A stretch of 64,000 bases of DNA from an uncultured Thermotogaceae bacterium (lineage in GTDB: Bacteria > Thermotogota > Thermotogae > MWEM01). The DNA is taken from positions 183,074-247,073 of the forward strand of contig CAYWWY010000001.1 in the NCBI GenBank assembly GCA_964462525.1, given 5' to 3'. Positions 5,068-61,912 of this stretch are shown in pieces. A model generated the notes under the pieces. It did not search any database and had not been told where the DNA came from. It saw nothing but the letters and a program-made list of their open reading frames with translations. Every line of letters begins with the position of its first letter. Position 1 is the first letter of the stretch. The position numbers were made by a program, and so were the translations under genes.

Positions 5068-5827
5068 ACATTTGCACCTCCAGAGCATGATTTGTTTAGT
5101 CACGCATATGATGGAGGATTTGTGGACTACAAAAAATCCGATTGCTGTATATCATAGGAACGAAAGGGAATAGAAAAGAAAACCGCTACAAGAATGAATG
5201 AGAAATAAGGAGCTTTTTGCTGGAACTCGAATCCTCACCGCAAAATCCCCCTTCTTTTCATCTTTTCATTTTACCATTTTGTGTACCTATTGTCAAGGAT
5301 CCGAAATGCTTCATAAATAAAAAGTACCCAAAATAGGATCTATTTTGAGAGCAGGGGACCGAGGCAAGGAGGAGCGTGTTCACATGGGGGAAAAATCCGT
5401 ATGGGAGAAATACGGGAAGTTGTTGAGAAGAGTGCGAAAAGATATCGAGAAAGCAATGACAGGTCACCCAAAACACAGATTTTGAACGAGTGTGACGAAA
5501 TGACGGGGTGCGAACGTCATTATGCAGCAAAGAACTTTCGTACAGAGCATTTGAGGCTTCGAGGGTTAAAAGGCGAAAAAAGAAGCCCAAAAGGGCAAAA
5601 GTCCAAGAAGATCCACAGGCATTTACAGACACCATATCACCGATGGCTGGAATTATCTTGGACCTCTCTAGATAAAAAAGAAGGGCTCCGCGGGGAAAGA
5701 TTTCAGATAAGTAATATACTATATAATACCATATATTCATACGAATCATGTCATATGGTATGGGTGAAATAAGATCAGATGTCCCTCCGTCAATAATATT
5801 GGAAAATCAAAATCGGAGGTGAAAGGT

Positions 5828-6289
5828 ATGTTGGTTCGAAGGGTACAAAGCGATTGGGACAACTTTTACAAACCGTTCTTGTCGATGCAAAGGGAGATTG
5901 ACAATCTTTTTTCCAACTTTCTTTCTGGGGAACGAGGCGCTAGTATCGATCGATCTGGTTGGAGGGTTCCCAGCGTAGATGTATATGATACTGAGAAAGA
6001 GTTTGTATTTGAATTTGAACTCCCGGGTTTTGACAAAGAGGATGTAAAAGTCAACGTGCAGAACGATGTGTTGACCGTGGAGTGTGAAAAAAAACTCCAG
6101 AGAGACTCCAAGGAAAAGAACTATCACCTTACGGAACGCCAAGGGCTTTGTTTCAAGAGGCAGTTCAATCTTCCAGACACGGCAGAATCTGACAAGACGT
6201 TCGCGCAATTTGAAAAAGGAGTTCTAGAGATCAGAATGCCGAAAAAAGAGGTTGCTCAGCCAAAAAGTATCGACATTCAAGTGAAATGA
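5828..6289 (+). CDS. Small heat-shock protein, Hsp20/alpha-crystallin family.
   Basis: Alpha-crystallin domain reads VDVYDTEKEFVFEFELPGFDKEDVKVNVQNDVLTVECEKK...GVLEIRMPK. ATG 5828 lies 7 nt after GGAGGTG; the ORF-track start at 5819 is a GTG. Confidence 0.85.
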   Translation: MLVRRVQSDWDNFYKPFLSMQREIDNLFSNFLSGERGASIDRSGWRVPSVDVYDTEKEFVFEFELPGFDKEDVKVNVQNDVLTVECEKKLQRDSKEKNYHLTERQGLCFKRQFNLPDTAESDKTFAQFEKGVLEIRMPKKEVAQPKSIDIQVK

Positions 6290-6310
6290 CCCATATCGCA
6301 AAAAAGCAAA

Positions 6311-6337
6311 AGGGCTGTTGATGACAGCCCTTTTGTT
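6311..6337 (+). terminator. Rho-independent terminator after hsp20.
   Basis: AGGGCTGT-tgatg-ACAGCCCT hairpin followed by TTTTGTT. An A-rich run sits upstream, so it could also terminate the convergent regulator gene. Confidence 0.75.
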
Positions 6338-6370
6338 CTAGTTCTCAAAAATAAGAGGAAAGGGATCTCT

Positions 6371-7126
6371 CTAGAATGGAATCCAATAAGCACGACCATC
6401 AGGTGTTCGTTGCAGAAACCCATATTCGATCAAGTATCGGCGCACCATGACATAATCATCAATTACGTTCATCAGAATTCGATTGATTTCGGATTCCTCA
6501 TATTTGATCCCTTTCTTCAAATGTTCCTTTATTATGTGTCTCAAGATGATCCATTTAGATTTTTGCTTGTTTGGAAAAACAATGATCTTTCCATTTCGGT
6601 CAACATACTTTTCTATCATTTTCTGCGCCTCTTCTTCTGTCACCGAGTATCGATCATCGATCATAGTTGCAGTTTTTGGGTATTCTACGAGCTTGTCTTC
6701 TCTTTTTTCCAATACTTCCACTAATTCCCACAGGGCAAGGAAAATCCGTGCCTGTTTCGCTTTTTCTCGGAGCCGAAAGCGGTGATTTCGGACAGTGGAT
6801 TCGCTTACCTTCATCTCCTGAGCAATATCCCGATTGCTTTTCCCATCATGGAGAAAAGTAAGTAAGACCGTTTGGGTTTCGCTCAACACTGAAAAACGCT
6901 GATCTAACTCCAACAGAAAGTTCCACGTTCCTCCGTGATCACATCGAATATGAAGATCGATTGCCTTTTCAGCAAGGTATAGATCACCTTCGACCTCATA
7001 GACCTTCCCTTCTTCATATACTCGTCCACAGACCAGGCAGATCCATTTTTTCTCTTCCGGAATCCAAAAACTTCCTGCTTTTAGATCTTCAGCAGGGACC
7101 TTCCAAAACCATTCATTCAGATCCAT
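6371..7126 (-). CDS. Putative transcriptional regulator with an N-terminal Cys/His zinc-ribbon-like motif, a central LuxR/GerE-type HTH and an uncharacterised C-terminal domain.
   Basis: HTH segment LLTFLHDGKSNRDIAQEMKVSESTVRNHRFRLREKA. N-terminus reads CLVCGRVY...HIRCDHGG. It is transcribed divergently from the metF-metH operon. Confidence 0.55.
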   Translation of the reverse strand: MDLNEWFWKVPAEDLKAGSFWIPEEKKWICLVCGRVYEEGKVYEVEGDLYLAEKAIDLHIRCDHGGTWNFLLELDQRFSVLSETQTVLLTFLHDGKSNRDIAQEMKVSESTVRNHRFRLREKAKQARIFLALWELVEVLEKREDKLVEYPKTATMIDDRYSVTEEEAQKMIEKYVDRNGKIIVFPNKQKSKWIILRHIIKEHLKKGIKYEESEINRILMNVIDDYVMVRRYLIEYGFLQRTPDGRAYWIPF

Positions 7127-7393
7127 CGTACCACCTCCATGGTCTGATTATATCACATAACATAAAATATTACAAACGTATACAGATAATGTCTACATAT
7201 ATAGATCATATTTCTGGATATGTTTGACTATCACTAGGCATTGGATGAACTGAGAACTGGATCAAAGACGGCTTAGCCGGGGAAGCAAACAACAGGGGGA
7301 AGATGGAATGGCGCGGAAGGGACCATTGTGTCTTTCTTCGGTTTCGAATTTCGGGGATGATGAAACACTGAATCGCTCAAAAACCTTTTGTCA

Positions 7394-7402
7394 TGGTATA
7401 AT
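7394..7402 (+). promoter_or_regulatory. Extended -10 (TGGTATAAT) of the metF-metH operon promoter.
   Basis: tcaTGGTATAATc lies 45 nt upstream of the metF ATG. The same TGGTATAAT element recurs in front of two other genes in the window. Confidence 0.5.
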
Positions 7403-7447
7403 CATCGCAGAATTTGGTGACGAGATCCTTAGATATTGGGGGTACTT

Positions 7448-8347
7448 ATGAAAAACAGAATAGCAGCATTCATGAACAGCCTATCGAGACCCTTTTCCTT
7501 GGAAATCTTCCCGCCAAAAAAAGAACATCAAAAAGCTTTTGAGTTTGTCTTGAGAACGATCGAAGCCCTCTGCCCCACGAACCCTTCATTCATCAGCGTA
7601 ACTTATGGTGCAGGCGGATCGAATAAAGGAAAAGTCGTGCAGATCTCTCACGAAGTGCTGGAAAGAGGAATCCTCCCGCTCAGTCATTTGACAGCGGTCG
7701 GATTTTCGAAGGAAGACGTCCGACTGGTTCTTGACCAGCTGCATGAAGCGGGAGTGCGCGCGATTCTCGCTTTGAGGGGAGATATTCCGAAAGGGGTTAC
7801 TTACCCAGATGGGGCGTGGAAAGACTTTCACCTTGCCATAGACTTGATCCGGCTCGTGCGAGAAGATGGCCGATTCTGTGTGGGGGCTGCAACCTATCCG
7901 GAGGGCCACCCTACCCATCGCGATCCAGATCGCTCGGTCGAGCATTTTGCTATCAAAGCATCTGCTGGGGCTGATTTTTTTATCTCCCAAATGTTTTTTG
8001 ACAACTCTTGCTTCTACCGTTTCGTGGATACAGTTAGAAAGCGCGGGCTTTCTCATCCAATCATTCCCGGAATCATGCCTTTGGTAAAAAAGATCCAAAT
8101 CCAGAAAATCCTCGAATTATCTGGGGCAATGATTCCCAAAACTCTGCTTGAATCAATTGAACGGTATCAGGATGACCCAGAAAGCTTTTGCCAAGCAGGG
8201 ATCGATTTTGCAACTCAACAGGTCCTCATGCTCAGAGATCAAGGAATCCCCAATGTTCACCTCTATACAATGAATCAACCTGATCCGATTCTGAAAATAC
8301 TCACACAAGCAAGTCTTTTGGATGAAAAGGAGATCCACAATGGATAG
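7448..8347 (+). CDS. metF: 5,10-methylenetetrahydrofolate reductase (MetF).
   Basis: FSLEIFPPKK...ISVTYGAGGSNKG...HLTAVGFSKED...ILALRGDIPKG matches MTHFR conserved blocks. The ORF-track start at 7436 is a TTG, so the first ATG (7448) was chosen. Confidence 0.8.
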   Translation: MKNRIAAFMNSLSRPFSLEIFPPKKEHQKAFEFVLRTIEALCPTNPSFISVTYGAGGSNKGKVVQISHEVLERGILPLSHLTAVGFSKEDVRLVLDQLHEAGVRAILALRGDIPKGVTYPDGAWKDFHLAIDLIRLVREDGRFCVGAATYPEGHPTHRDPDRSVEHFAIKASAGADFFISQMFFDNSCFYRFVDTVRKRGLSHPIIPGIMPLVKKIQIQKILELSGAMIPKTLLESIERYQDDPESFCQAGIDFATQQVLMLRDQGIPNVHLYTMNQPDPILKILTQASLLDEKEIHNG

Positions 8348-47351: not shown

Positions 47352-51554
<4,203 letters not shown>

Positions 51555-54647: not shown

Positions 54648-56960
54648 ATGCTCCACAAAGATGTACACAAAATCAAACGGTGGATTCCGATCGAAGGGAA
54701 AACCGGGATCGTTATGGAAGGAAGCTCTTGGAGATGGGAGTACCATCACAAATCCCAGGCTTTTCTCTGGAGCAGTAGTTTTATTGATATCTTGGATAAC
54801 CCCAATCAAGAGGTCGACGCGTCTCTGGATTCCTTTATCAAACTGATCCATCCCGAAGACCAAGAATCTGTACGTAAGGCCTGGACACAATCCATCCGCA
54901 CGGAAGAATCTTATTCAATCGAATACCGGTTGAAAATTGCGCAAGATTCGTTTATATGGATCAGTGAGTATTGCCGTACGGAATTTGATAAAAATGGAAA
55001 TCCAATCCGTTCTGTCGGGATTCTTCACGACATTAGTGACTGGAAAACCCAGGAAGAACAGTTGAACAAGGAAAAAGACCGATTGCAGGATGTTTTGTCA
55101 TCGATCGGAGCAGGCACTTGGGAAGTAAATCTCCTGACAGGGGATACCAAAAGAAACAAAAACTGGTATCATGCTTTTGGATACAATCCAACTGATTCTC
55201 CCCCTCATCAAAATTTCGGATTATCGATCATTCATCCAAATGATCAAAAAAAAGTCAAAGAGTCGATAGATGCGTTGATCCGGGGCGATCAGGTTGTATC
55301 TGAGCTTGAAGTTCGATTGAAACATAAACAAAGAGATTGGATTTGGGTAATCAGTAGGGCGCAAGTCATCTCATTTAAGAACGGGATTTCCGAGCGTTTG
55401 TCCGGTATCGATTTTGACATTTCCGACCAGAAGAAAAAAGAGCAAACGCTTCAATCTTGGATTTCATTGCTCAATGCAACCCTTGAATCCATTGTCGATG
55501 GGATTCTAATAATCAATCGCTTCGAAAAAGTTGTGAAATGGAACCGAAAAGGTCTGATTCTTTGGAACCTTTCTGAATCCCTTGTCCAGGAAGGTCTTTT
55601 CGAAAAAGTCATTCAACACATGGCCCGGAATCTGGATGATCCTGCGCAGTTTAATGAGCAAGCTAAAGCGGTGTATGCCAATCCACAAGAATCGAGTTTT
55701 CGTCAAGTTCGTTTTGCCGATGGAAAAATTCTTGAATGGTATTCTAAACCACAATACATGGGAAATGCTGTTGTAGGAAGCGTATGGAGTTTCTGTGACA
55801 TCACAGAACAGATTCGCCTTCAAACCCAACTTCAAGAACAGCAAATGCAGATCGAATATGCAATGAAAGAAATGCCTGCCTCCATTTGGACTGCCTCTCA
55901 TCCCGATCATACTCCGGTTTTTTTCAGCGAATCCAGCGAAAAGCTGTATGGCAGATCGATGGACGATATCTTTGCAAATCCTGATATCGAGCTTGAATTC
56001 ACTCATCCAGAGGATCGAGAAATAGCGGTGAAGGCATATGAAACCTTGGAAAAGGAAGGAGTTGCAGAATTTGAGTATCGGCTTGTTCACCCGGACCACT
56101 CATTTATTTGGGTCAATCGGAAAATGAGGGCAGTTAGGGAAAACGGGAGAATCGTCCGGATCCAAGGAATCGAAGTCGATATTACAGAGCGAAAGAAGTA
56201 CGAGTCCCAACTCCTTGAAGCAAAAATGCAAGCAGAAGCTTTTTCAAAAGCCAAATCTGATTTTTTATCCAATATGTCTCATGAACTCAGAACCCCGTTA
56301 ACTGGGATAATCGGTTTTGCTGATTCTTTAATGATGACTCCATTAAATGATGAGCAAAGGTTTCTTCTTCAGCATATTATTACTGCCTCAGAGGCGTTGA
56401 AGAATGTGGTTGGAAACGTGCTGGATATCTCAAAGATCGAAGCAGGAAAACTGGAACTCCATCCGCGTTCGGTTGATTTGCTTTCTTTATCTCGCCAGAC
56501 TTTAAGTATGGTTCAGTACCAAGCCAAACAGAAACAGATCCAACTGTCTCTAACGGTTGATCCTCTCATTCCAAAAGTCATGATCGATCCGCTTCGAATT
56601 CAACAGATTCTGCTCAATTTGGTGGCAAATGCAGTCAAGTTCACGCCTGAAAGAGGTCGAGTGGACCTTACCATAAAAAAAAGAAGTGATTTCCCTCTCT
56701 GCGTGGGTTTTGAAATTGCTGATACCGGGATCGGAATCCCTGAGAATGAGAAGAAACGAATTTTCGAACCCTTTGAGCAAATTGATAGTTCTTTAACACG
56801 AAAGTATTCAGGAACCGGAATCGGTCTTGCTATCTCTCTCGAACTGGTTCAACGGATGGGTTCCGCTATTCAGGTCAAATCGGAATTGGGTAAGGGCTCG
56901 ACTTTCTTTTTTGATTTAGAACTTCAACCTTCCTCACTTCATCGAAAAAAGGGGAAGTAG
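54648..56960 (+). CDS. Multi-PAS/PAC sensor histidine kinase with no adjacent response regulator.
   Basis: At least 4 PAS/PAC modules, then HisKA (SHELRTPLTGIIGFADSL) and HATPase_c (GTGIGLAIS). Confidence 0.8.
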   Translation: MLHKDVHKIKRWIPIEGKTGIVMEGSSWRWEYHHKSQAFLWSSSFIDILDNPNQEVDASLDSFIKLIHPEDQESVRKAWTQSIRTEESYSIEYRLKIAQDSFIWISEYCRTEFDKNGNPIRSVGILHDISDWKTQEEQLNKEKDRLQDVLSSIGAGTWEVNLLTGDTKRNKNWYHAFGYNPTDSPPHQNFGLSIIHPNDQKKVKESIDALIRGDQVVSELEVRLKHKQRDWIWVISRAQVISFKNGISERLSGIDFDISDQKKKEQTLQSWISLLNATLESIVDGILIINRFEKVVKWNRKGLILWNLSESLVQEGLFEKVIQHMARNLDDPAQFNEQAKAVYANPQESSFRQVRFADGKILEWYSKPQYMGNAVVGSVWSFCDITEQIRLQTQLQEQQMQIEYAMKEMPASIWTASHPDHTPVFFSESSEKLYGRSMDDIFANPDIELEFTHPEDREIAVKAYETLEKEGVAEFEYRLVHPDHSFIWVNRKMRAVRENGRIVRIQGIEVDITERKKYESQLLEAKMQAEAFSKAKSDFLSNMSHELRTPLTGIIGFADSLMMTPLNDEQRFLLQHIITASEALKNVVGNVLDISKIEAGKLELHPRSVDLLSLSRQTLSMVQYQAKQKQIQLSLTVDPLIPKVMIDPLRIQQILLNLVANAVKFTPERGRVDLTIKKRSDFPLCVGFEIADTGIGIPENEKKRIFEPFEQIDSSLTRKYSGTGIGLAISLELVQRMGSAIQVKSELGKGSTFFFDLELQPSSLHRKKGK

Positions 56961-57300
56961 CATATAGGATCATTGTTGATAGAATGCCATTAATGGAATC
57001 TTATACAAACGGCTGGCGTTTACAATCACCTTTGAAAACTCAAAAGCAATGAGCGCATCTTTCGGATTCCGTGGTTCACGATCCCATTCCCGAATAATAT
57101 CTCGATACAGACAGATCAGCACCTCTCGGCGTTTCATACGTCCCCCCCCCTATACTGAGCGGTATTTATGCTTCTCTCATGTTATATTATATAACAATTT
57201 ATTCCTTTTTGTCAATAGTGATAAAGGAAGAAAACCAGAGGCATTTCAAAGAAAACCATACGTTCTGTCGAAAATAGCCCTACAATAAATATAACTCATT

Positions 57301-57334
57301 TTGATTTCCGATTAAACTGTGGTAAAATACAGTT
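57301..57334 (+). promoter_or_regulatory. Promoter TTGATT-N16-TAAAAT overlapped by an AACTGT-N8-ACAGTT palindrome (candidate autoregulatory operator) that abuts the start codon.
   Basis: TTGATT at 57301-06 and TAAAAT at 57323-28. AACTGT at 57315-20 and ACAGTT at 57329-34 fit the CTGT-N8-ACAG geometry. ATG at 57335 has no SD sequence. Confidence 0.55.
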
Positions 57335-58009
57335 ATGAATCCAACAACTGAAGGTATCGGTACTCGCGTGAAAAAACGCAGAGTGATCATGGGATTGAGT
57401 CAAAAAAAACTATCCGATCTATTGGGTGTTGCTCAAGCTCATATTTCCAAAATCGAGCGGGGGAAAGGATATCCATCTCCTAAACTCTTGGTCAATATCG
57501 CTCGTGTCTTGAAAACGACTTCCGGATACCTTACTGGATCATTCTCCGAATCAGAATCTTCTCCATTCGAAACCGGGTTGGTCGAGTTCGATCGCGAAAC
57601 ACAACGGTATAAAGTTCGCGTAATTGGTCGTATTTCTGCAGGAGGTACCGAAAACTGTTCAATTGCTGCAGAAGAGGTTATTGCGGTTATCGAATCAGAC
57701 AAACCCATGGACTATGCCTTATTGGTTCGCGGGGATAGCATGGAACCAAGGCTGTTTGATGGGGATGTTGTGTTGATTCAGAAGACTCCTGTGAGTGAAT
57801 TAAAAAACCGCGATATGGTCGTAGTGATACGGAATTTTGAAGAGGGCCTTGTAAAACGGTTTTTCCAAGATGATTCAGGAAATGTAATCCTACAAAGCGA
57901 TAATGCAAATTACCCTCCCCTCATTATCCCAGCTGACCAAATTGGTATTGAATGCTTTATTGTGGGAAAGGTAATCGAGATACGAGCTTATCCTGGTAGC
58001 CGTTTCTAG
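57335..58009 (+). CDS. CI/LexA-like repressor with an XRE-type HTH and a peptidase S24 (autocleavage) domain.
   Basis: HTH_3 segment MGLSQKKLSDLLGVAQAHISKIERG. S24 segment VRGDSMEPRLFDGDVVLI...VKRF. Confidence 0.75.
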   Translation: MNPTTEGIGTRVKKRRVIMGLSQKKLSDLLGVAQAHISKIERGKGYPSPKLLVNIARVLKTTSGYLTGSFSESESSPFETGLVEFDRETQRYKVRVIGRISAGGTENCSIAAEEVIAVIESDKPMDYALLVRGDSMEPRLFDGDVVLIQKTPVSELKNRDMVVVIRNFEEGLVKRFFQDDSGNVILQSDNANYPPLIIPADQIGIECFIVGKVIEIRAYPGSRF

Positions 58010-58548
58010 GAGGCGAAAAGCACCGTGTTTGTTTGCTGTTGCAGTTCAGATAAGCAATTTGATCTAGCTTTTTTCAAAGGCTTTATTTTCGCCGCCCTGT
58101 TCCAACAAAGATGGAGTTCTTGAAGGAATACAAGCACTTTCAAAGGTTCAATATTCAATGCGCCACCCCTTTTCCGTATCTTGTTCTCGTGTGTCCCGAA
58201 GATCTTCAAAGGAAAAAGGACGATCTGATTGACCGCGGGATCCCTGATCGGAACTAATTGCTCTTTCAACATTGGTTCGCATAAACGCATTCTGGTATTT
58301 TATTGAAACCGGAAGCTTTCATCGATAACGCAATCCTTTATATGATCTAGATAATGGATATTGTTAACTGATGCCCATTATGCCCTTCCTTACGTTATGA
58401 ATACCATCGGGCAGCACTCTATCTGTTGGCGGAATTATATTATTTTGCTTGAAACTTCAATATACGAATTCAATGCATCAAAAAATTTGAAGGGCGTTGA
58501 TTGATTGAAACCAATAAGAATCCAAAATTATAAAAGCAGGAGTCCCCT

Positions 58549-60071
58549 ATGTCAATACTCGAAAAAAAACTGCTTGAACTCCAGACCCGAATGCACGAAA
58601 TCATGAATCTCCAAAAAACCAACGCTTTACTGTATTGGGATCAAGCAACAAATATGCCCGTAGACGGGGGGTATAACGGAGCAAAGCATTGGCAACAATT
58701 TCTCGAATCATCCACGAAAAGCAAACAGATCCTGCAGTCGGCAAACTTTTGGACAATCCTGAACCCATGGTAGAATCTTTTCCCTACGATCATGACAATT
58801 CGGCTTTTGTCCGTATTGCCCGTAGAGATTTCGAACGCGCCATTAAAGTGCCCTCTTCATTTATTTCAGACGCTTCTAGCCATTTTGCTTCTACGTACCA
58901 GGCGTGGACAGATGCCTGCCTTTCTAATAAATTTAAGGGGATCTTGCCGATGCTGGAAAAAACTTTGGTTATAAGCAGGCAAATGGCGGATTTCTTCCCT
59001 GGGTACGATCATATAGCCGATCCGCTTATCGATTTTTCCGATTATGGCTTGAAAGCCAATAATGTCCGTAAAATTATTATTGAATTGCGTCAACAACTAA
59101 TCCCTTTGGTACAGACGGTAACCGCACAAGAGATTGCCGATGATAGCTGCTTACACAAACACTTTCCAGAAAAAAAACAACTTGATTTCAGCGCTCAGAT
59201 GATCAAAGCTTTCGGTTTTAATTTTTCTCGAGGTCGACAGGATCAAAGCCCCCATCCATTTACGATCAGTCTTTCAATAGACGATGTCCGGATTACAACC
59301 AGAATCATAGAAGGAGATCTGAGTTGGGGATTTTTCTCTACGACACACGAAGCGGGGCATCCTATGTATGAGCAAGGAATCAAGAGGTCCTTTGAGGACA
59401 CTCCACTTAAAAGAGGCACGAGCTCAAGCATTCACGAATCTCAATCTCGGACATGGGAAAACCTGGTTTCACGAAGCCGACCGTTTTGGGAATACTTTTA
59501 TCCACATCTTCAAAAGACCTTCCCCGAACAACTCAATCCTGTTTCTCTGGATTCTTTTTATCGAGCAGTTAATAAGGTTCAGCGGTCTGTTATTCGAACG
59601 GAAGCAGACGAGTTAACCTACAATCTTCACGTTATGATACGCTTTGAACTCGAATTGCAGTTGATGGAAGGAGAGCTTGCTGTCAAAGATTTGCCTGAAG
59701 CATGGAGAGCGGCATATCAGCGAGTACTGGGATTGTCCACTGATAATGATTCCGATGGATGTATGCAAGATATTCACTGGTTCTCGAAGATGATTGGAGG
59801 TGCTTTCCAAGGGTATACGCTTGGCAACATCATATCCGCGCAGTTTTTCGAACGAGCGCTTCAAGCCCACCCCGAAATCCCTCAGGAGTTTCGCAAAGGG
59901 GAATTTCACACCTTGCGGAATTGGTTAACAGAGCATATTTATCAACATGGGCGTAAGTTTACCACAACCGAGCTAATTCAAAGGATTACTGGTGAAGGTT
60001 TGTCCATCGGACCATATATTCGTTATCTCAAGAAGAAATTCAGTGAATTGCACAAAATCGAAAAACACTAG
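58549..60071 (+). pseudogene. M32 carboxypeptidase (Taq-type), interrupted by a -1 frameshift near 58666-58677.
   Basis: The first frame reads ...LLYWDQATNMPVDGG then goes out of register and stops at 58773. The second frame reads ...RSKALATISRIIHEKQTDPAVGKLL... and continues through HEAGHPMYEQG (HExxH) to 60071. The junction coincides with a G6 run at 58666-58671. Confidence 0.7.
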
Positions 60072-60541
60072 ACCAATCTGTCTCAAATCTGAAGTTCGTT
60101 CTGAACATTCAAGCTATGGTCAACAATGGCTTCGATATATCCGATGGTAACAAGATTCATGAGGTCCATCGGGGCTTTGCGCATAAAGGTCAGACCTCCA
60201 TTTCCTAGACCCTTGTTCCGAACAAGTGGTTCTATGTGAGATCCGCTTGATTGCTGCAAATTCAAGGCGGAATCATGGAAAATGAATCAAAGGGGCACTT
60301 GAGGTAAGAACAACCCCATTAGTCGCTACCAGTATTTCTCTCGAGCCCAAAATATGACTCATCTTTCTCAACGCCATCCGCCTCTTTCTATTAAATAATT
60401 GGAGAGGTAATCGGTTTTTTGACCTTTTTTTTCCAACGATATCATACTCTTGTCGTTAACCTCTTACTTTTCGCAAAGACAGAAGGGGGCACTTTTTTTG
60501 TCGCTTTCGCTCACACTTAAGGAGGGAAAGGCTATACGCGT

Positions 60542-61528
60542 ATGAAAAACCACGATCACACAAAACATTACGTGTCTCAGATCAACGAAGTGCTGGACTA
60601 TATTGATCGCAACTTGACCCGTTCTTTTACCCTTGAAGAGCTTGCAGCTATTGCAGGATTCTCAAAATATCACTTTCATCGGATCTTTACTGCCTTCCTT
60701 GGAGAAACCCTGTTTCGCTATATTCAGCGATTGCGGTTGGAAAAAGCAGCCCGTTTGCTTTTGGAGCGCAAAGAAGAGAGTATCACGCAGATTGCGATGG
60801 ATGTTGGTTTTTCCGGATCAGCACCCTTTTCCCGAGCTTTTAAGGAAGTATTTTGCATCCGGCCCAGTGATTGGAAAAAGAAACACCGCAATTCATGCCA
60901 TAATCTTAGCAATCCTGAGCAATCGTTTCGTAAGAATGGCAAAGACTTACCGAACAATCCCCTTTATCATTCAGTGATCTCATCTGAAATAGTGAGGTAT
61001 GCGGAAAGGGAAACGATGAACAAAGGGATTGTTCAACCGATTGGGTCAGTTCGAGTGGAACGGATTGAGCAGATGACATTGGCATACATTCGATACATAG
61101 GACCGTATCAAGGAGATGAACTGCTATTCGAACGGCTTTTCAACCAGCTATCCCATTGGGCGAACCCGAAAAATATGATTCGATTTCCAGAGGCGAAGTG
61201 TATCATTGTGTATCATGATGATCCAGATATCACTCAACCAGAAAAACTCAGAATTAGTGTATGCATTAGTGTGCCCTCCGATACCAAGGTCCAAAAAGCA
61301 ATCGGGAAAATGGTCATAGATTCTGGGAAATGCGCTATCGGTCATTTTGAAGTCAGAGGAGATGAGTTTGGGAAGGCTTGGAACTACATGTATGGGTTCT
61401 GGTTGCCTCATAGCGGTTATGTACCAGATGACCGGCATTGCTTCGAGTTATATCCGAAAGAAAAGGAAACTCATCCCGAAGGCAAATACACAGTGGATAT
61501 CCACGTTCCTTTGAAATCGGCGGAATGA
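60542..61528 (+). CDS. AraC-family transcriptional regulator with a C-terminal GyrI-like effector-binding domain.
   Basis: N-terminal HTH_AraC (SFTLEELAAIAGFSKYHFHRIF...) and a C-terminal GyrI-like fold (~150 aa). Confidence 0.8.
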   Translation: MKNHDHTKHYVSQINEVLDYIDRNLTRSFTLEELAAIAGFSKYHFHRIFTAFLGETLFRYIQRLRLEKAARLLLERKEESITQIAMDVGFSGSAPFSRAFKEVFCIRPSDWKKKHRNSCHNLSNPEQSFRKNGKDLPNNPLYHSVISSEIVRYAERETMNKGIVQPIGSVRVERIEQMTLAYIRYIGPYQGDELLFERLFNQLSHWANPKNMIRFPEAKCIIVYHDDPDITQPEKLRISVCISVPSDTKVQKAIGKMVIDSGKCAIGHFEVRGDEFGKAWNYMYGFWLPHSGYVPDDRHCFELYPKEKETHPEGKYTVDIHVPLKSAE

Positions 61529-61699
61529 TCAAGCGGTCCATCAAGAAAAGCTCTTACCTCGAAATTTGATCCATATCCATGCAACGAGCGAGATTCAGGA
61601 TACGAGCTTGAAAACTCCAAGTCTTTTCTTACACCCAATTCTCGAGAAAAGAATGGTACTATTGGGTAAAGAAGAGAGAATGACTCGGAGAAAAAGATC

Positions 61700-61912
61700 A
61701 TGCTTAATACGCGCGCTTTTCTTGCTGTCCCTCTCTTAATGGGAATGGGATTCCCTCCAACTGCGGCTGCAATGATCACTCTTCTTTTCAATAGCACATC
61801 AGTCGCTTTTGGAGCCGTTGGTACAGCGATAGTTGTGGGGATCGGCAATTCTATTTCGGGATCGTTTATCGCTTCGATCCTCTCTATTCTCCAGAAATTC
61901 TCCAATTTATAA
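61700..61912 (+). pseudogene. Remnant of an L-lactate permease (LctP-family) gene.
   Basis: AVPLLMGMGFPPTAAAMITLLFNSTSVAFGAVGTAIVVG aligns with the conserved [37 protein letters not shown] block of LldP/LctP permeases. The frame is closed 30 nt upstream and after 70 codons. Confidence 0.45.

Follow-up and report, generated by a model that had tools for sequence, protein, structure and literature searches.

A divergently transcribed gene pair is located at positions 56970–58009 of the window, i.e., the whole stretch of 64,000 nucleotides (nt) analysed here, from contig CAYWWY010000001.1 of an uncultured Thermotogaceae bacterium (assembly GCA_964462525.1, positions 183,074–247,073). One gene (positions 57335–58009, + strand) encodes a CI-type repressor of 224 amino acids (aa), which has an N-terminal XRE helix-turn-helix (HTH_3), a linker and a C-terminal S24 autopeptidase domain. 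The other (positions 56970–57137, − strand) encodes a 55 aa protein, a predicted helical hairpin and a homologue of a phage early-operon protein, and is likely the regulated target. A 197 bp intergenic region separates the two. An earlier note on this DNA was concerned with the repressor and with a palindrome, AACTGT-N8-ACAGTT, in front of its start codon. What is worth attention at this locus is the divergent 55 aa gene, its consensus promoter and a 17 bp palindrome that overlaps this promoter.

Two related loci are used for comparison. In the sister-species locus (L008/L009) the repressor is 85% identical and the synteny is the same. In the locus from a third genome (L010/L011) the repressor is 69% identical and the neighbouring genes are different. 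The L010 repressor gene had been called from an internal Met; its true start is at L010 position 3328.

The gene pair and its control region

The Pfam search places HTH_3 at residues 12–66 of the repressor (E=1.4e-13) and Peptidase_S24 (PF00717) at residues 96–214 (E=9.9e-20), which bears out the XRE-S24, CI/LexA-like architecture that had been read from the sequence. The linker contains a putative scissile bond, Ala102-Gly103, that aligns with A84-G85 of LexA and A111-G112 of lambda CI and is invariant in 10 of 10 aligned sequences. Ser135 and Lys174 align with S119/K156 of LexA and S149/K192 of lambda CI. The earlier note had named loss of this Ser/Lys dyad as a reason to give up its reading, and the dyad is intact. 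E. coli LexA and lambda CI served as the references in this computed alignment. The domain, the Ser/Lys dyad and the Ala-Gly bond by which members of the S24 self-cleaving repressor superfamily (LexA/CI/UmuD) are recognised are all present. An in-frame TAA at positions 57323–57325 excludes an upstream start, and a start at the next Met (residue 19) would cost helix 1 of the HTH; the repressor start is therefore placed at ATG 57335.

The repressor matches the PHROG_4 profile, annotated as transcriptional repressor, over residues 6–216 with an E value of 3.4e-40. It is 27–35% identical, over more than 90% of its length, to CI-like repressors of Marinitoga, Fusobacterium, Geobacillus and other phages. 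The score against TIGR00498 (lexA) is 47.8 bits vs a cutoff of 110.95, and the match is confined to residues 88–211, i.e., the C-terminal domain. No LexA winged-helix domain (PF01726, LexA_DNA_bind) was matched in the repressor by Pfam, HTH_3 being found instead. Judged by the absence of the winged helix and by an SOS box that is not conserved (see below), the repressor is classified as CI-type (COG2932/PHROG_4) and not as a canonical LexA. It has the XRE/HTH_3-S24 fusion of the CI type, and a divergent early-type promoter and gene share its control region. The annotation by JGI is "repressor LexA". A DicA subfamily model shows a weak match of 38 bits to the N-terminus. A toxin-antitoxin or defence-system reading was also considered; PADLOC gave only generic HTH models (capH, RmrA, control-protein), all on the N-terminal HTH and mostly at residues 8–80. 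The orthologue family is very small and unevenly distributed: just five close relatives are present among 5.8 billion proteins. When genome contigs were scanned for near relatives, the sole result was a 34%-identical HTH fragment from a Lachnospiraceae metagenome-assembled genome. A metagenome scan with the orthologue alignment was dominated by ~35%-identical XRE-S24 genes from the human gut and gave no new close orthologue.

The predicted repressor promoter (positions 57301–57328, + strand) consists of TTGATT (57301–57306), a 16 nt spacer and TAAAAT (57323–57328), with an extended −10 TG at 57320–57321. The predicted transcription start is the A of ATG 57335. The 20 nt before this ATG have no GGAG, GAGG or AGGA, in agreement with the absence of a Shine-Dalgarno (SD) sequence that had been claimed. 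A block TGGTA(A/C)AAT-N6-ATG is conserved in the window, L008 and L010; it represents an extended −10 whose last base is 6 nt before the ATG. The −10 is identical at 7/8 positions in L008 and 8/8 in L010, and the 6 nt before the ATG at 6/6 and 5/6 positions, respectively. The L008 sequence reads TGGTACAAT-ACAGTT-ATG. A promoter scan of L010 finds TTGCCT-16-TAAAAT with TG, ending 6 nt before the ATG, which is the same geometry as in the window.

The geometry of extended −10, 6 nt and ATG is maintained in the three closest orthologues while the intergenic region as a whole diverges (73% identity in L008 and 43% in L010), and this conservation supports a leaderless reading. A clear GGAGG-type SD sequence is present in the distant relatives L012, L013, L107, L109 and L111 (43–55% identity), and an SD-like motif is found at about half of the long open reading frames (ORFs) of the window, even with a crude start taken from the longest ORF. 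The missing SD is therefore a specific, conserved trait of a small clade. The repressor mRNA is probably leaderless, as the earlier note had proposed.

The 55 aa protein has orthologues with 89% identity in L008 and 56% identity in L010. Comparison of the window and L008 shows 18 synonymous vs 7 non-synonymous codon changes, and this excess of synonymous, third-position changes implies that the 55 aa ORF is a real gene. The corresponding numbers for the repressor are 66 synonymous vs 36 non-synonymous. By these codon counts both genes are under purifying selection. The AlphaFold2 (AF2) model of the 55 aa protein has a mean pLDDT of 80.6. The sigma-70 promoter of the gene (positions 57186–57215, − strand) consists of TTGACA (57215–57210), an 18 nt spacer and TATAAT (57191–57186), a 12/12 match to the consensus. 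The match is also 12/12 in L008 and is 11/12 (TTGGCA) in L010, with an 18 nt spacer in both. A run of nine G residues on the − strand (positions 57143–57151, C9 on the + strand) is 5 nt upstream of the ATG and presumably substitutes for an SD sequence. The run is 9 nt long in six independent assemblies and 10 nt in the sister species, with no sign of phase variation; in L010 there is GGGAG in its place.

A 17 bp perfect palindrome, TGTTATAT-T-ATATAACA (positions 57180–57196), covers the −10 and the expected start of the 55 aa gene promoter. No other 8+8 dyad is present in the region, and no second copy with up to three mismatches is found in the window, where 0.09 copies are expected. The 17-mer is conserved at 16/17 positions in L008 and 11/17 in L010, and its position and symmetry make it the best candidate for an operator. 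An analogous dyad, GGGAATAT-T-ATATACCC, is present between the divergent genes of L111, where it overlaps a −10 as judged by eye and not confirmed by a promoter scan. The heptamer ATATAAC has five copies in the 64 kb, both strands counted, and three of the five are in the 197 bp intergenic region. The third of these half-sites (positions 57289–57295, + strand) is ~43 bp upstream of the predicted repressor start, near the −35, and is conserved in L008 at the same distance (−46). This copy is a possible auxiliary or autoregulatory site.

A further dyad, TTCCTTT-N14-AAAGGAA (positions 57202–57229), surrounds the −35 of the 55 aa gene promoter. Its counterpart in L008 is TCCTTTCT-N14-AGAAAGGA, in which the left arm has C for T and the right arm a matching G; L010 has no such dyad. 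The element may represent a second protein-binding site.

Phage relatives and genomic setting

A phmmer search of 1.84 billion cluster representatives with the 55 aa protein returned only P0020 (from L010) and P0022. The latter is a 54 aa protein with 43% identity (E=3e-6). It is encoded in operons with the order 81aa-54aa-(63aa)-89aa-YqaJ exonuclease-RecT-Phage_rep_org_N, on contigs that share their metagenomes of origin with the window organism, and one contig is an IMG/VR viral contig. A word-indexed search with the 55 aa protein gave only the self-match, and tblastn against 50,697 phage genomes gave no match. Each of the repressor relatives with 43–49% identity has a small gene diverging from it, after which come ParB-like nuclease, HNH or phage-integrase genes. 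The phage-immunity origin suggested in the earlier note is thus supported from three sides, i.e., the PHROG_4 match, the relatives beside integrase and ParB-like genes, and the homology of the 55 aa gene to a phage early gene.

Dyads are also found in two of the related loci. Upstream of a P0022-type phage early operon (L097 positions 164–182 and 214–232) are CTCGCAC-N5-GTGCGAG and CTCGCAC-N5-ATGCGAA, which look like operators of that phage. All four contigs of the P0022 phage end within 140–300 bp upstream, and no repressor gene is seen on them. In L012, which encodes a 55%-identical relative, positions 500–660 contain three (A/C)CAGGAATATATT-like repeats upstream of the SD-led start. One of the repeats holds the 10 bp palindrome GAATATATTC, which fits GGA-N5-TTC as written in the Figure 1 legend of PMC8565304.

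The pair is surrounded by genes for a PAS histidine kinase, TldD/PmbA, LigA, an M32 peptidase, an AraC regulator, MraY and MurF. Other genes of the window are also of the housekeeping type (ThrRS, pyruvate kinase, Lnt and MetH, in addition to LigA, TldD/PmbA, MraY and MurF). No phage genes (integrase, replication or structural) are present among the scanned ORFs of the window, so the pair is not located in a recognisable prophage. The neighbours of the pair are a histidine kinase and a permease in both the window and L008; in L010 they are a methyl-accepting chemotaxis protein (MCP) and a pyridoxal phosphate (PLP) enzyme. Because phage genes are absent, both genes are under purifying selection, the synteny is kept in the sister species and the pair has different housekeeping neighbours in the third genome, it looks like a retained, self-contained unit and not like the end of a decaying prophage. 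The earlier proposal of a degraded prophage or decayed mobile region therefore stands with respect to phage origin, and the decay does not appear to extend to the pair itself.

Downstream of the repressor, the window (positions 58010–61912) and L008 (positions 5656–7625) differ. The breakpoint is exactly at the repressor stop codon. In L008 an intact gene for a 559 aa lactate permease directly follows the repressor gene; in the window the permease is reduced to a 70 aa internal fragment (positions 61700–61912), and ~3.7 kb, made up of a non-coding stretch, the M32 gene and an AraC/GyrI-like regulator gene, is in its place. The carboxypeptidase gene that the earlier note called damaged is indeed split into two frames. 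This M32 (Taq-type) gene (positions 58549–60071, + strand) has frames of 74 aa and 460 aa that overlap around positions 58689–58773, and a G6 run (58666–58671) is near the overlap. The split is called in six independent metagenome assemblies and is therefore not an assembly error from a single sample.

The 540 bp stretch between the repressor and the M32 gene had been described as AT-rich. Its GC content, 0.38–0.415 vs ~0.43 locally, is just slightly below the local average. The segment at 58010–58548 has no homologous counterpart in L008 and no conserved ORF; a 94 aa ORF (58006–58290, − strand) and an 85 aa ORF in L008 gave nothing in Pfam, NCBIfam, PHROGs or PADLOC. A second 12/12 promoter, TTGACA-17-TATAAT (positions 58527–58555, − strand), overlaps the M32 start codon and is directed into the stretch, toward the repressor gene's 3' end. 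At positions 58236–58220 (− strand) there is a weak terminator-like hairpin. The folding of the 516 nt minus-strand RNA of this spacer is no better than that of shuffled sequences (z=0.39), and an Rfam search of positions 56900–58700 at a permissive threshold found nothing. The only Rfam family matched in the window is the cspA thermoregulator (RF01766) at positions 1612–1963 (− strand), with 85.1 bits vs a gathering score of 78.

The proposed switch and alternative explanations

The combined observations make it reasonably likely that the locus is a phage-derived two-gene repressor/effector unit in an ordinary chromosomal region. The repressor promoter, which is weak, has an extended −10 and probably gives a leaderless mRNA, would provide a low, steady level of repressor. 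The consensus promoter ~120 bp upstream would fire in the opposite direction, into the 55 aa gene. A repressor dimer bound at the 17-mer would block the −10 and the start of this promoter and keep the 55 aa gene silent. With DNA damage, RecA filaments would induce cleavage at Ala102-Gly103, and this would part the DNA-binding from the dimerisation domain and result in a burst of the 55 aa helical-hairpin protein. The third ATATAAC half-site, beside the repressor −35, could allow autoregulation. Such a pair might be a domesticated minimal DNA-damage switch in which the 55 aa phage protein is the damage-induced effector of the host, e.g., a brake on division or replication, but this is a tentative suggestion and rather doubtful.

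Several findings weigh against the two-gene unit as outlined. In L010 the 17-mer has lost its left half (4/8 arm symmetry) despite a near-identical recognition helix. Since L010 keeps only the right half, which includes the −10, the true operator may be different from the 17-mer or shorter. The −10 hexamer contained in the 17-mer accounts for part of its conservation. At 147 bp from the repressor start, the 17-mer cannot alone account for autoregulation. The 55 aa protein has no match in Pfam, NCBIfam, PHROGs or PADLOC, and a Foldseek search of its model against PDB and BFVD gave no match with E<1. The leaderless geometry and the 55 aa gene are common to three genomes only.

A different operator would be the palindrome of the earlier note, AACTGT-ggtaaaat-ACAGTT (positions 57315–57334). 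It had been placed between the −10 and the ATG. It does directly abut ATG 57335, and its right arm is the 6 nt between −10 and ATG, but the best −10, TAAAAT, is inside the 8 bp spacer and not upstream. The 20 nt before the ATG are AACTGT GGTAAAAT ACAGTT in the window, AATTAT GGTACAAT ACAGTT in L008 and ATATAT GGTAAAAT CCAGTT in L010. The left arm is identical at 4/6 positions in L008 and 3/6 in L010, no more than the background, and L010 no longer shows the dyad symmetry. The recognition helix GVAQAH(I/L)SKIE is kept in the window, L008 and L010 repressors, and the three proteins would therefore be expected to read the same operator. Perfect 6+6 dyads with spacers of 0–14 are present in 54% of the 200 bp tiles and 8.4% of the 40 bp tiles of the window, and 26 such dyads have a spacer of exactly 8. 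A search for AACTGT-N8-ACAGTT with up to two mismatches finds one occurrence in the 64 kb vs 1.7 expected, so that no further copies of the kind by which the earlier note wished to define a regulon are present in the window. CTGT-N8-ACAG is the consensus of the Beta/Gammaproteobacterial LexA box. The observation that this spacing is matched exactly, beside an XRE-type HTH, is correct, and no winged helix is detected by Pfam. The palindrome is probably a chance dyad composed of conserved promoter sequence and a lineage-specific left arm, and not an SOS box. It illustrates how readily an SOS-box look-alike can come about, here by the combination of a conserved extended −10, a leaderless start and a single arm specific to the lineage. 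The question is settled by comparing orthologues in which the recognition helix is retained.

Two rival explanations give the palindrome a function. In one, it is a real operator in this lineage, used by the XRE-S24 protein to repress the promoter of its own gene, without an SOS regulon. The perfect 6+6 dyad is centred on the −10, a bound dimer would exclude RNA polymerase, the sequence is identical in six independent assemblies of the species, and 4/6 symmetry is kept in L008. However, promoter function accounts for the conservation of the right arm and the spacer, the left arm changes as fast as the background, L010 has lost the symmetry but not the recognition helix, and comparable dyads are frequent (8.4% of 40 bp tiles, as above). 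Self-repression through this site is thus considered unlikely. The palindrome and the 17-mer were also considered as two versions of one operator, and this was ruled out by the distance between the TGT and ACA triplets, 8 nt vs 11 nt; one dimer could not bind TGT-N8-ACA and TGT-N11-ACA alike. In the other explanation, the exact CTGT-N8-ACAG match is a site for a canonical LexA of the host and puts the repressor gene in the host SOS regulon. But the palindrome is not conserved in the sister species, the only other CTGT-N8-ACAG of the window, at position 50970, is within the coding region for the DNA ligase LigA, and no feature of the window points to a Gammaproteobacterium. This makes a host LexA site highly improbable.

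The remaining alternatives concern the pair as a whole. The repressor could be a global non-canonical SOS regulator and not part of a local two-gene switch. The CI-like HTH and S24 architecture is that of the Bacteroidetes non-canonical LexA (PMC8565304), the gene is chromosomal, conserved and outside a prophage, and the name given by JGI agrees with this role. Against it, neither the 17-mer nor AACTGT-N8-ACAGTT recurs in the 64 kb, and five patchily distributed close relatives in so large a protein set would be unexpected for a core regulator; there is little probability that the repressor has a global role. About equally improbable is an inert pair, left over from a decayed prophage and now without function. 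Both genes do have phage homology, and the adjacent rearrangement, with the frameshifted M32 gene, the 70 aa permease fragment and the ~3.7 kb not shared with L008, would fit such decay. Yet both ORFs are intact with a synonymous excess (18:7 and 66:36 vs L008), the promoters are at or near consensus in three genomes, synteny is kept in the sister species and the GC content is like that of the surroundings. The phage-derived two-gene unit, retained with its promoters, remains the preferred reading. The 55 aa protein belongs to a very small family, with three other members among 1.84 billion cluster representatives, and, if damage-induced, would be a tractable candidate for a new small effector.

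Comparison with known systems

The pair has the arrangement of a lambdoid immunity region in several respects. Lambda CI and lambdoid repressors likewise combine an XRE HTH with an S24 domain that has the Ala-Gly, Ser and Lys residues, and the relatives of the present repressor, like lambdoid repressors, are encoded beside integrase and early genes. As in lambda PRM/PR, a weak promoter with a predicted leaderless repressor mRNA is back-to-back with a strong divergent promoter, here under a 17 bp palindromic candidate operator. The lambda cI mRNA from PRM is described as leaderless in PMC10491246. There are also differences. The present pair has no prophage around it, and the divergent gene encodes a 55 aa helical hairpin with no Cro-like HTH. 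There is one full palindrome vs three tandem operators in lambda, and the promoters are ~120 bp apart and do not overlap.

Canonical LexA shares the catalytic residues of the S24 domain, and over its own promoter it has a palindrome whose outer tetranucleotides and spacing are those seen here. The present protein differs in its XRE N-terminus and in a TIGR00498 score far below the cutoff, and the palindrome is not conserved in the orthologues and has no further copies in the window. HdiR-type units have a umuC or dinB neighbour. There is no such neighbour at the present locus. HdiR (Lactococcus/Streptococcus) and the non-canonical LexA of Bacteroidetes (PMC8565304) are nonetheless similar in that they are chromosomal CI-like HTH_3 and S24 proteins annotated by pipelines as LexA-like. 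The motifs of the Bacteroidetes LexA, GGA-N5-TCC as well as CTAA-N5-TTAG, have no match within positions 57138–57334. The present repressor also has no room for an extra C-terminal helix, as its last conserved strand is only 10 residues from the C-terminus, and there is no evidence of a repair-gene regulon.

The cryptic-prophage pairs DicA/DicB and RacR/KilR, and e14 CohE with an SOS-inducible division inhibitor, are functional parallels. DicA and RacR are without an S24 domain. The likeness is in a phage XRE repressor retained with a divergent small phage protein, together with the weak match to the DicA model. The present repressor differs in that it has the S24 domain, and no DicB or Kil homology was detected for the 55 aa protein.

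By analogy, the closest concept to the present pair is FddR of Francisella, a co-opted phage S24 repressor that has a divergently transcribed target and is found outside prophages (PMC13148647). Both are CI-type S24 repressors outside a predicted prophage, and in both the unit is present in differing genomic surroundings. The present pair has the features of such a stand-alone unit, i.e., a phage-type S24 repressor outside a prophage, with a divergent target, kept together across genomes. Both also have a palindromic site that spans 17 bp, GTG-N11-CAC in FddR and TGT-N11-ACA here. In contrast to FddR, the candidate operator here is over the divergent promoter and not over that of the repressor itself. 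DNA-damage induction and DNA binding have been shown for FddR (PMC13148647), whereas for the present pair damage induction and binding to the 17-mer are inferred. The present lineage is uncultured, with ~42% GC, and the likeness is one of concept. In PMC13148647, FddR is put forward as a self-contained unit that could allow SOS-like networks to be rebuilt. The present unit is a further case, in an uncultured lineage, in which a phage repressor is kept with one small early gene outside any prophage; from FddR, this arrangement has recently been proposed as an intermediate stage when DNA-damage networks are rebuilt. If the pair is indeed a domesticated switch, it would represent an independent second "seed" of this type.

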